The notes under the pieces: generated by a model
The model's input: only the letters and a program-made list of their open reading frames with translations
The model's database searches: none
What the model was told of the DNA's origin: nothing
Shown here: one piece after another, positions 11,804-13,780 of the stretch
How the letters are laid out: each line of letters starts with the position of its first letter
Position numbering within the stretch: the stretch's first letter is position 1
Translations under genes and position numbers: made by a program
Assembly (NCBI GenBank): GCA_030430165.1
Contig: JAUIGL010000006.1
Span: 5,412 to 69,411 of the forward strand
Length of the DNA stretch: 64,000 bases
Source of the DNA: a bacterium
GTDB lineage: Bacteria; Desulfobacterota; Binatia; HRBIN30; CADEER01
Direction: 5' to 3'

Positions 11804-13780
11804 ATGCCAAGGATATTGCGCTGTCTAGCCGTACTCGCGGGGGTCGCGATCGGACTTGCAGCATCGAGCACGCCGGCCGCGGCGGTCTGCGACGGCGATT
11901 GCAACAACGACGGCGAGGTCGTCATCAGCGAGCTGACGATGGGTGTCAACATCGCCCTCGGCAACACGCAGATGGCCGCCTGCGAGAATTTCGACGTCCG
12001 CGAGGACGAGCGCATCAGCGTCGACGAGCTCGTTCTGGGAACGCTCTCGGCGCTCAACGGATGTCCGATCAACCTCAGCGCCAAGACCTTCCGTTCGGTC
12101 CAGCAGGTCTTCACGCAGAGCTGCGCCTTCAGTACCTGTCACTCCGCGCTCTCGCGCGAGGGCGGTTTGGTGCTCGGCGACGAGGAAGTCTCCTACAGCA
12201 ACCTGGTCGACGTCGATGCGCAACATCCGGATGCCGTAGCGATGGGGCTCAAGCGGGTCGTCTCCGGGGACCCCGAGAACAGCTATCTCATTCGCAAGCT
12301 GCGCGGCATGGGACCGGGAGAAGCGATGCCACTCGCCTTCCCGGCGCTCAGCGAAGACGTGATTCAGGTCATCGAGGACTGGATCGCGCGCGGCGCCCAC
12401 GGGACTCTCGAGGAGTGCGCGGCACTCGGCGAGGAAGCAGTGTTCGACGGCGGCGGGTCGCACCCCGGCGACGTGCAGACGGTGTGCGACGACACGCCGA
12501 TCGAGCCCGGCGACTACGAGTGGAAGCCCGAACCTCCACTGCCGGCTCCGGCCGCCGACGAGGGCATTCAGCTCTACGTTCCGAAGCGCCCCGTCCTCGC
12601 CGGCAGCGAGTGGGAGAGCTGCATGGCCTTCAAACCGGATTGGCCGGCGATCGGCCAGGCCGTCGGCGTCAACGGAATCCCGCAAATTCGCCAGCAGGAC
12701 TATCGCATGCACAGCGGCAGTCACCACTTGCTGGTCTACCAGTATTTCGGTGAATACCCCGACTGGGAGTGGCCGGAAGGACACTTCGACTGCTCGGCCG
12801 GTAACTGTGTCCACCCCGGAATCTGCACCGACGGCACTTGCAGCTCGGGTAAGGTCGGCAAGTCGTGCGGCAGCGACGAAGAGTGCGACGAGTGCCCACC
12901 GGACGGCCGCAACAGCATCGTCAATGGCGGCACCCAGGTCGCCGGTACACGTTACCAGGTGATCTACCCCGACGGCGTCGGCATTCCCGTGCTCAGCCCG
13001 GACTCGGTGATCATCGCCAACCTGCACTACACCAATCCGTTCCAACCGCCGCAGGACATCTACGCCGAGGCCTGGCTCAACTTCTATTTCTACAAGCCCG
13101 GCGAGTTCAAAGCGATTCTCGATGGCATCTTCGCCATCGGCTACAGCAACCTGCTGATCGAGCCGTACGAGACTCGCACCATGACCGAGATCTGGCGCCC
13201 GCGCGGCCTGCTGACCGGCAACGACGACGCCAACATCTTCAACCTGTTCGGTCACATGCACAAACGCGGCATTTTGTTCCAGGTCGACCTGGTGGCCGGC
13301 GGAAGCTGCTCCGAGAGCGGCGATCTCTGCGCCAAGGACAGCGACTGCGCCTGCCGGCCGCCCGATCGCAACTGCGTCGAGGGTCAGACCTGCATCGTCG
13401 GCCCCGATCTCGAGGACACGACGATCTACAGCACCACCTCGTGGGGCAACTCGCCGGTCATCGATTACCCGCCGCCCTACCTCAAGGTCCCCAAGGAAGC
13501 CGGTCTGCGCTGGACCTGTGTCCACCAGAACGGCCGCGAAGGCGACCCCGGCTTCCCGCCGAAGATCTGTCACGAGGGTTGCCGCGCCTGCGGTTGGGAC
13601 TCGGAGTCCCGCACCTGCATCTTCACCCGCGGGCGCCAGCTCGGGTTCTACGACAGCAACCGGGTCTACCAGGAAGGCGACCCGATGCCGCTGGTGTTCG
13701 GCGAGCTCGCCGACGACGACATGTGCAATCTGTTCGGGTACTTCATCCCGCAGAACGCGCTGGAGCGCCTCAACCAGTAG
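11804..13780 (+). CDS. Secreted fusion protein: dockerin-like module + CX4CH cytochrome-like domain + PHM/DBH-type copper monooxygenase-like core.
   Basis: RBS ggaggagg precedes ATG 11804. Signal peptide MPRILRCLAVLAGVAIGLAASSTPAAA. Module at nt 11888-12064. SCAFSTCHS at nt 12122-12142. Cu-ligand-like motifs are GSHHLLVYQY, ANLHYTN, GHMHKRG and DDDMCNLFGYF. Confidence 0.7.
   Translation: MPRILRCLAVLAGVAIGLAASSTPAAAVCDGDCNNDGEVVISELTMGVNIALGNTQMAACENFDVREDERISVDELVLGTLSALNGCPINLSAKTFRSVQQVFTQSCAFSTCHSALSREGGLVLGDEEVSYSNLVDVDAQHPDAVAMGLKRVVSGDPENSYLIRKLRGMGPGEAMPLAFPALSEDVIQVIEDWIARGAHGTLEECAALGEEAVFDGGGSHPGDVQTVCDDTPIEPGDYEWKPEPPLPAPAADEGIQLYVPKRPVLAGSEWESCMAFKPDWPAIGQAVGVNGIPQIRQQDYRMHSGSHHLLVYQYFGEYPDWEWPEGHFDCSAGNCVHPGICTDGTCSSGKVGKSCGSDEECDECPPDGRNSIVNGGTQVAGTRYQVIYPDGVGIPVLSPDSVIIANLHYTNPFQPPQDIYAEAWLNFYFYKPGEFKAILDGIFAIGYSNLLIEPYETRTMTEIWRPRGLLTGNDDANIFNLFGHMHKRGILFQVDLVAGGSCSESGDLCAKDSDCACRPPDRNCVEGQTCIVGPDLEDTTIYSTTSWGNSPVIDYPPPYLKVPKEAGLRWTCVHQNGREGDPGFPPKICHEGCRACGWDSESRTCIFTRGRQLGFYDSNRVYQEGDPMPLVFGELADDDMCNLFGYFIPQNALERLNQ

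Follow-up and report, generated by a model that had tools for sequence, protein, structure and literature searches.

The window analysed here, a 64,000-nucleotide (64-kb) stretch of contig JAUIGL010000006.1 from an uncultured soil bacterium of the Binatia, carries on its forward strand a gene at positions 11804–13780 whose uninterrupted translation gives a protein of 658 residues. From its N-terminus onward, the product combines a predicted signal peptide, a four-cysteine module resembling dockerins, a cytochrome-like domain with a CX4CH motif, and a two-domain core related to peptidylglycine alpha-hydroxylating monooxygenase (PHM) and dopamine beta-hydroxylase (DBH). This architecture had been put forward in the original prediction, which was made from the sequence alone, and all of the motifs named there were found in the translation at the residues given. 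The features of the gene are listed below, with residues numbered from ATG 11804; AF2 denotes the AlphaFold2 model and pLDDT its predicted local distance difference test score.

11787–11794, + strand: strong ribosome-binding site GGAGGAGG, 9 nt 5' of ATG 11804 (read from the sequence)
11804–13780, + strand: whole gene, putative secreted haem-domain/Cu2-monooxygenase fusion, 658 aa plus stop (translation)
11804–11884, + strand: predicted Sec signal peptide, aa 1–27, AAA/V cleavage context (sequence; helix at aa 3–19 in the AF2 model)
11888–12064, + strand: four-Cys EF-hand-pair/dockerin-like module, aa 29–87, with C29, C33, C60 and C87 (Dockerin_1, E 0.23)
12083–12397, + strand: PSCyt1-like putative mono-haem c domain, aa 94–198 (PSCyt1 and TIGR03806 matches; alignment with CXXCH relatives)
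12122–12142, + strand: C107-AFST-C112-H113, CX4CH, putative haem attachment and proximal His (invariant, 46/46)
12326–12331, + strand: M175-P176, putative distal Met ligand (46/46; kept in distant fused relatives)
12398–12562, + strand: linker, aa 199–253, with invariant C205 and C228 (pLDDT <50 at aa 208–224)
12563–13111, + strand: CuH (electron-transfer) beta-sandwich domain, aa ~254–436 (Foldseek match to PHM/DBH; hhalign to PHM domain I)
12722–12727, + strand: H307-H308 in GSHHLLVYQY, equivalent to PHM H107/H108, CuH (hhalign map; invariant)
13025–13027, + strand: H408 in IIANLHYTN, equivalent to PHM H172, CuH (hhalign map; invariant)
13112–13777, + strand: CuM (O2-activating) beta-sandwich domain, aa ~437–658, with Cys-rich insertions (Foldseek; hhalign; intermediates match Cu2_monoox_C)
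13253–13261, + strand: H484-M-H486 in FGHMHKRG, equivalent to PHM H242/H244, CuM (hhalign map; invariant)
13721–13726, + strand: M640-C641 in DDDMCNLFGYF, equivalent to PHM M314 (CuM ligand) and C315 (hhalign map; invariant)

The start at ATG 11804 is sound because the homologues are 658–661 aa long. Overlapping open reading frames (ORFs) in other frames are numerous, an artefact commonly seen in GC-rich DNA; that the gene itself is a chance ORF in such DNA was ruled out by more than 160 conserved homologues. A promoter and terminator scan found nothing. The N-terminus reads MPRILRCLAVLAGVAIGLAASSTPAAA, followed by V, and its AAA/V end fits the signal peptide that the original prediction had placed at aa 1–27; the protein is predicted to be exported by a Sec-type signal.

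The homologues, more than 160 in number, were retrieved from a database of proteins clustered at 90%. None of the 120 listed has a Pfam domain, and all carry the source name 'hypothetical protein'. They are found mainly in metagenome-assembled genomes (MAGs) of Candidatus Binatia (GTDB genome scan), some of which bear the older labels 'Deltaproteobacteria' or 'Thermodesulfobacteriota'. A family alignment was built from 46 full-length homologues with 49–71% identity, in which C107, C112, H113, M175, P176, H307, H308, H408, H484, H486, M640 and C641 are each present in 46/46. When a family profile of the catalytic region was searched against 1.84 billion (1.84e9) representative proteins, 205 matches were obtained, which represent 205 or more clusters formed at 50% identity; among them is a group of distant relatives from bacteria, with E-values spanning 1e-21 to 1e-5.

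PHM/DBH-type monooxygenases, which in animals yield amidated peptide hormones (PHM) and noradrenaline (DBH), have been studied almost only as ascorbate-dependent enzymes of the eukaryotic secretory pathway, and to our knowledge all characterised members (PHM, DBH and TBM) are eukaryotic and ascorbate-dependent. On balance, the present protein probably belongs to a mostly-Binatia, uncharacterised branch of type II copper monooxygenases that carries its own electron-donor domain; its catalytic scaffold is known, and its electron-supply architecture, its lineage and presumably its substrate are new. We searched the literature for PHM/DBH homologues in bacteria, for Cu2_monoox_C, for copper monooxygenases of Binatia and for fusions with cytochromes; no relevant paper turned up, an absence in the literature searched that is not proof of novelty. 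A cuproproteome survey does not mention the PHM/DBH family (PMC2147054).

The PHM/DBH-like core and its putative copper sites

We consider it very probable that aa ~254–658 are a true, divergent and bacterial member of the PHM/DBH superfamily because three independent lines of evidence, namely structure, intermediate sequences and profile–profile alignment, converge on this assignment. The AF2 model has a mean pLDDT of 77.9, with values of 80–97 across most of aa 250–658, and, together with Foldseek, reveals two tandem beta-sandwich domains with the topology of the PHM catalytic core. In a Foldseek search of the PDB with this model, the comparison that the original prediction had proposed, all of the 30 best matches were human DBH or rat PHM (E 4.1e-10 to 2.5e-6, probability 1.00, TM score up to 0.64 when normalised to PHM length), and viral capsid jelly-rolls ranked below them (E ≥4e-5).

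The HMMER comparison that had been suggested alongside turned out differently: the protein itself matches neither Cu2_monooxygen nor Cu2_monoox_C, and the latter is reached only through distant relatives. Pfam searches with the 46 homologues returned a single match to the Cu2 families, at E 0.48, and searches of NCBIfam and of the PDB (phmmer) with the protein yielded nothing relevant for the catalytic region. Among 69 distant relatives, 28 match Cu2_monoox_C (best E 1.3e-11) and three match Cu2_monooxygen. Two of them were checked singly: P0158 and P0162 score 33.9 and 41.8 bits against Cu2_monoox_C (cutoff 23) and match our family profile at 1e-15 and 3e-14, respectively. The family is linked to Cu2_monoox_C via such intermediates at E 1e-15 to 1e-21. 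Profile–profile alignment with hhalign joined the family to the distant relatives (100%, E 1.3e-66), the distant relatives to rat PHM (97.7%, E 1.8e-12) and the combined profile to rat PHM (97.2%, E 3.1e-11, 244 columns); the rat PHM query is identical to PDB 4E4Z_A. Control alignments with five shuffled PHM sequences and one reversed sequence gave probabilities of at most 0.4% (E 0.17–0.7). The PHM/DBH core claimed in the original prediction was borne out in this way by Foldseek, by the Cu2_monoox_C-matching intermediates and by hhalign.

The residue map obtained from the combined profile is exact for all six copper ligands of rat PHM. The proposed CuH (H307/H308/H408) and CuM (H484/H486/M640) sites are upheld by this map and by their invariance in the family. 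In 33 distant relatives that were aligned, the five His residues are present in 33/33 and the Met in 30/33, with His in its place in the other three; the conservation of the ligands accordingly covers 46 + 33 = 79 sequences. From these residues we infer that both sites would bind copper. In the superfamily, the two copper ions are uncoupled and lie about 11 Å from each other, with a solvent cleft between them. Two PHM disulfides also have counterparts in the hhalign alignment: C273-C330 aligns with C81-C126, and C605-C641, beside the Met ligand, aligns with C293-C315. In addition, N642 aligns with the substrate-contacting N316 of PHM, the Asn being kept.

The active site differs from that of PHM in the residues expected to bind the substrate. 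In the PHM complex 1OPM, R240 and Y318 anchor the glycine carboxylate. The equivalents of these residues are F482 and F644, and the carboxylate anchors are absent. Because both are replaced by Phe, peptidyl-glycine is not a likely substrate, and an assignment of the protein as a PHM orthologue was rejected. More broadly, the protein shares with PHM (rat PAM core, 1PHM/1OPM/4E4Z) the two-domain beta-sandwich, the aligned His3 and His2Met sites, the C81-C126 and C293-C315 disulfides and N316, whereas sequence identity is ~12%, and the protein lacks three of PHM's five disulfides and has additional Cys-rich insertions. PHM is ascorbate-dependent, whereas the present protein is bacterial, has a Sec-type export signal and is fused to a cytochrome-like domain.

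The Cys-rich insertions noted in the original prediction are present in this protein and differ in their distribution. Insertion 2 (aa ~500–530) recurs in most of the 46 homologues, whereas insertion 1 (aa ~336–364) occurs in just 6/46. In P0040, P0097 and P0114, the position of insertion 2 holds a complete dockerin-like module, e.g. CTGDCDENNAVTMDELVKGVNIALG. This module thus seems to serve as an insertion within the protein as well as a tag at its N-terminus.

Human DBH (4ZEL), which is grouped here with its DOMON relatives MOXD1/2 and TBM, was the best Foldseek match (E 4.1e-10). Like the present protein, DBH has an N-terminal accessory domain that precedes the Cu2 core. In DBH this is a DOMON beta-sandwich, whereas here it is an alpha-helical PSCyt1-like module. 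The DOMON domain of DBH has no haem in the structure, and the reductant of DBH is ascorbate with cytochrome b561.

The cytochrome-like N-terminal domain

The region preceding the copper core, aa 94–198, is a putative haem-c domain. The planctomycete-cytochrome layout attributed to it in the original prediction, including CX4CH, is indeed present: the C107-AFST-C112-H113 motif is followed by SGDPENSYL, M175-P176 and WIARGA. The same layout (F..C..CH / PGDP..S.L / MP / WI..GA) characterises PSCyt1 (PF07635, 'Planctomycete cytochrome C') as well as the haem-c portion at the N-terminus of fatty-acid cis/trans isomerase (CTI, PF06934), and hidden Markov model matches to these models across the family range from sub-threshold to significant. 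The HMMER search against PSCyt1 proposed earlier gave a match at E 0.012, with a score (16.7 bits) below the gathering cutoff of 22. The protein also matches the TIGR03806 dihaem cytochrome model of NCBIfam (E 4.8e-4) and, below threshold, the haem-bearing N-terminus of CTI. PSCyt1 is matched at E ≤1 by 26/46 homologues, the best at 3e-5, and the best distant relative reaches 1.2e-9. The top Foldseek matches of the isolated-domain model were c-type cytochromes, namely hydrazine synthase alpha (HZS-alpha), FoxE, c-551 and c6, all at a non-significant E ≥0.09. A profile search of the PDB with the domain returned only spurious matches to ribosome-recycling factor.

Unlike PSCyt1 and CTI, the family has CX4CH for CXXCH in 46/46 homologues, CXXCH being found in 0/46. 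Among the 69 distant relatives, 31 possess a Cys-x(n)-Cys-His motif 90–190 residues upstream of the copper core, which is CX4CH in 27 and CXXCH in four, and the two forms share one alignment column with a two-residue gap. The Met-Pro and the Trp downstream of the motif are conserved across the distant fused relatives, and W193, in the C-terminal Trp helix, is invariant in the family along with M175-P176. Judged by these distant relatives, the fusion of cytochrome and copper core is ancient and recurrent, and CX4CH appears to be a variant form of the site at which haem is attached. The usual companions of PSCyt1 are PSD1/DUF1553-type proteins and not copper monooxygenases. Haem attachment at CX4CH has been documented in other cytochromes, e.g. 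in a paper on hydrazine dehydrogenase (PMC6469936).

In one distant relative, P0172 (784 aa), CX4CH lies at residue 688, C-terminal to a copper core that starts at residue 53. The lineages accordingly seem to differ in the side of the catalytic core to which the cytochrome module is fused.

Proposed electron supply, chemistry and alternative explanations

The interpretation that we favour, with moderate confidence for the whole including haem-mediated electron supply to the Cu2 core, is that of a Sec-exported multi-domain oxidoreductase with its copper core in the C-terminal two-thirds. Periplasmic carriers would deliver single electrons to a haem c at CX4CH (C107, C112 and H113, with M175 as the distal ligand), and the haem would hand them on singly to CuH (H307, H308 and H408), replacing ascorbate. 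We infer that electrons arrive via the haem domain because ascorbate would not be expected to act as a reductant in the periplasm or outside the cell. O2 would then be activated at CuM (H484, H486 and M640) with two single electrons in each turnover, as in PHM and DBH, and a C–H bond of a bound substrate other than peptidyl-glycine would be hydroxylated. An Amidohydro_2 metallo-hydrolase, which is encoded next to the gene in most relatives, may process the hydroxylated product. The module at aa 29–87 probably serves calcium-dependent folding or anchoring.

Tethered or docked cytochrome donors are known for other copper enzymes, namely the cytochrome-c-fused copper nitrite reductase and the cellobiose dehydrogenase or CYBDOM cytochromes that feed lytic polysaccharide monooxygenases. 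By analogy only, the proposed one-electron haem domain would likewise reduce mononuclear copper without a small-molecule reductant, whereas the catalytic folds and copper sites of those enzymes are unrelated to the present ones.

Several results weigh against this interpretation. On its own, the protein reaches none of the Pfam gathering cutoffs; hmmscan against Pfam returned no match to Cu2_monooxygen (PF01082) or Cu2_monoox_C (PF03712), and hmmsearch of the PDB with the 46-sequence family profile returned none to PHM or DBH. With hhalign, the family alone reached probabilities of 3.4% and 8.3% against the single rat PHM sequence, which are not significant, although the motifs were placed correctly. 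As for the haem domain, CX4CH is a non-canonical haem motif, and the isolated-domain model has a pLDDT of 71 that falls below 50 around the CX4CH loop, a disorder to be expected without haem. Foldseek of this model found no significant match (best E 0.09), and we know of no biochemically characterised member of PSCyt1, which is a motif-defined family. The sole clue to the substrate is that the residues anchoring the carboxylate in PHM are gone, and tblastn detected no Amidohydro_2 gene in the 64-kb window.

The results on the haem domain could be accommodated by a protein with a genuine copper core and a haem-free CX4CH domain. The latter would be a degenerate cytochrome fold with a structural, metal-binding or docking role and a C107–C112 disulfide, and the copper core would depend on some other electron carrier, which could be a small cytochrome, a cupredoxin or a reductant of low molecular weight. 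The non-canonical motif, the lack of CXXCH in all 46 family members, the PSCyt1 score below cutoff and the absence of a significant Foldseek match for the domain model are all consistent with this explanation, as is the occurrence of a free-standing cytochrome-like protein, a cupredoxin and other cytochromes near homologues. However, the two Cys residues, the His and the Met-Pro are absolutely conserved in the 46 homologues and retained in very distant relatives, and the interchange of CX4CH with CXXCH in one column would be unexpected for a relic domain. Moreover, haem attachment at CX4CH is documented elsewhere (PMC6469936). We regard a haem-free domain as unlikely.

If the haem is accepted, the scaffold could still support a chemistry other than hydroxylation: the protein might act as an oxidase or a peroxygenase, carry out radical cross-linking like a BURP cyclase, or reduce a small oxidant. 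The characterised members of the fold, PHM, DBH and TBM, are all hydroxylases, and the full sets of CuH and CuM ligands and the disulfide adjacent to the Met are kept here. Against these points stand the loss of both anchors, R240 and Y318, the fact that our analysis gave no evidence on the substrate, and the precedent of AhyBURP, an unrelated copper cyclase with similar His2Met sites and a different chemistry (review, PMC12164859). Such a departure from hydroxylation strikes us as rather unlikely. The explanation that the likeness to PHM and DBH is a mere convergence of jelly-roll folds, and the protein a non-catalytic binding or structural one, draws on the lack of a direct Pfam or PDB sequence match and on the viral capsid jelly-rolls in the lower ranks of the Foldseek list. 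It is effectively refuted and retains hardly any probability in view of the transitive sequence link with strong statistics, the alignment of six metal ligands and two disulfides with PHM, and the invariance of the ligands in 79 sequences.

Should the favoured interpretation of a haem-fed copper monooxygenase hold, there would be a bacterial branch of the PHM/DBH family with a tethered haem domain, whose closest relatives are mostly uncultured Binatia. The built-in redox centre would allow the debated steps of electron delivery to CuH and CuH-to-CuM transfer to be triggered and followed optically. The chemistry of the family would extend to environmental substrates, a function could be assigned to the puzzling PSCyt1 module, CX4CH variant included, and a reductant-independent hydroxylation biocatalyst might be of practical use.

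Genomic neighbourhood and the dockerin-like module

Three genes flanking the copper protein gene bear on its possible partners.

10003–10602, − strand: small secreted protein with signal peptide, dockerin-like module and CX4CH (CAFAGCH) domain (ORF translation, Pfam)
10786–11631, + strand: ZIP-family metal permease, directly upstream on the same strand (Pfam Zip, E 9e-38)
13857–16049, − strand: pyrroloquinoline quinone (PQQ)-type beta-propeller, 730 aa, convergent neighbour, dockerin-like module at its C-terminus (PQQ_2, E 3e-27; TIGR03075, E 8.6e-25)

A Binatia contig of 4.77 Mb (L001) shows synteny with the window, the shared order being P450, small ORFs, small dockerin-plus-CX4CH protein, ZIP permease, copper protein, PQQ propeller, PNPOx and Rrf2. 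The ZIP permease, a conceivable metal supplier of the copper enzyme, occupies the same position in L001 and is not found there in the more distant loci. The small protein encoded at 10003–10602, two genes away, is conserved in L001, shares 36% identity with the cytochrome-like domain of the copper protein and could be a soluble redox partner. The PQQ propeller contains internal Cys-rich insertions and resembles PQQ alcohol dehydrogenases and the 'acido-empty-quinoprotein' model weakly and only in part. Propellers of this type are also found close to homologues in L001, L006 and L007, and their role as an electron source is a possibility that we offer as speculative. A cupredoxin and further cytochromes are likewise found repeatedly around homologues.

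In eight of ten related loci, the homologue is adjoined, in varying orientations, by a gene for an Amidohydro_2 protein of ~480 aa:

L001, 10040–11548: Amidohydro_2 gene, product with a twin-arginine signal
L002, 6514–7953: Amidohydro_2 gene
L003, 4370–5794: Amidohydro_2 gene
L004, 4565–6004: Amidohydro_2 gene, overlapping the monooxygenase gene by 4 nt
L006, 8265–9695: Amidohydro_2 gene
L007, 3356–4801: Amidohydro_2 gene
L009, 3559–4995: Amidohydro_2 gene, 5 nt from the monooxygenase gene
L010, 3347–4807: Amidohydro_2 gene

This adjacency is a strong functional association. In the window, the slot that the Amidohydro_2 gene holds in the syntenic contig is a gap of 76 nt between the copper protein and PQQ propeller genes. 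Searches of the Amidohydro_2 protein against the PDB and NCBIfam gave no match. In PAM, the partner of PHM is PAL, a beta-propeller lyase, whereas the partner here is an Amidohydro_2 TIM-barrel. One may imagine a two-enzyme pathway resembling PAM (PHM plus PAL), in which a self-sufficient haem-c/Cu2 monooxygenase that needs no ascorbate hydroxylates an extracellular substrate beside a heteroatom and Amidohydro_2 cleaves the unstable intermediate. The net reaction would be an oxidative dealkylation or amidation, with electrons supplied by neighbouring PQQ-type dehydrogenases via the dockerin-tagged small CX4CH cytochromes. In this full form, the pathway is rather unlikely.

The module at aa 29–87 has the four Cys residues that the original prediction had assigned to a dockerin-like unit; the match to Pfam Dockerin_1 (PF00404) is below the gathering cutoff (E 0.23), and its two calcium loops are a canonical one, DCNNDGEVVISEL, followed by a degenerate one, DVREDERISVDEL. 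EF-hand_1 is matched in 9/46 homologues, and neighbouring proteins have EF-hand matches at 1.8e-6. 'Dockerin-like' denotes a resemblance only, the module being a Cys-bracketed unit of the EF-hand-pair type with the consensus CxGDCDxDGxVxIxELxxxVxIALG...C. A search of the window for its DNA motif gave four occurrences against zero expected:

10502–10527, − strand: module DNA motif
11888–11913, + strand: module DNA motif, in the copper protein gene
42336–42361, − strand: module DNA motif
58897–58922, + strand: module DNA motif

With the C-terminal copy of ORF 13857–16049 (− strand), the module stands at the start or end of at least five secreted proteins of the window, the copper protein included. 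It looks like a lineage-wide tag for secretion, anchoring or assembly that is not specific to the enzyme.

Two of these secreted proteins are distinguished by what follows the module. ORF 40484–42484 (− strand, 666 aa) continues after it with ~400 aa of near-periodic, Thr/Pro/Arg-rich low complexity (TRTPTxTRTPT...) and a C-terminal globular part. In ORF 58798–60171 (+ strand, 457 aa), it is followed by repeats that, by eye, resemble FG-GAP/VCBS.

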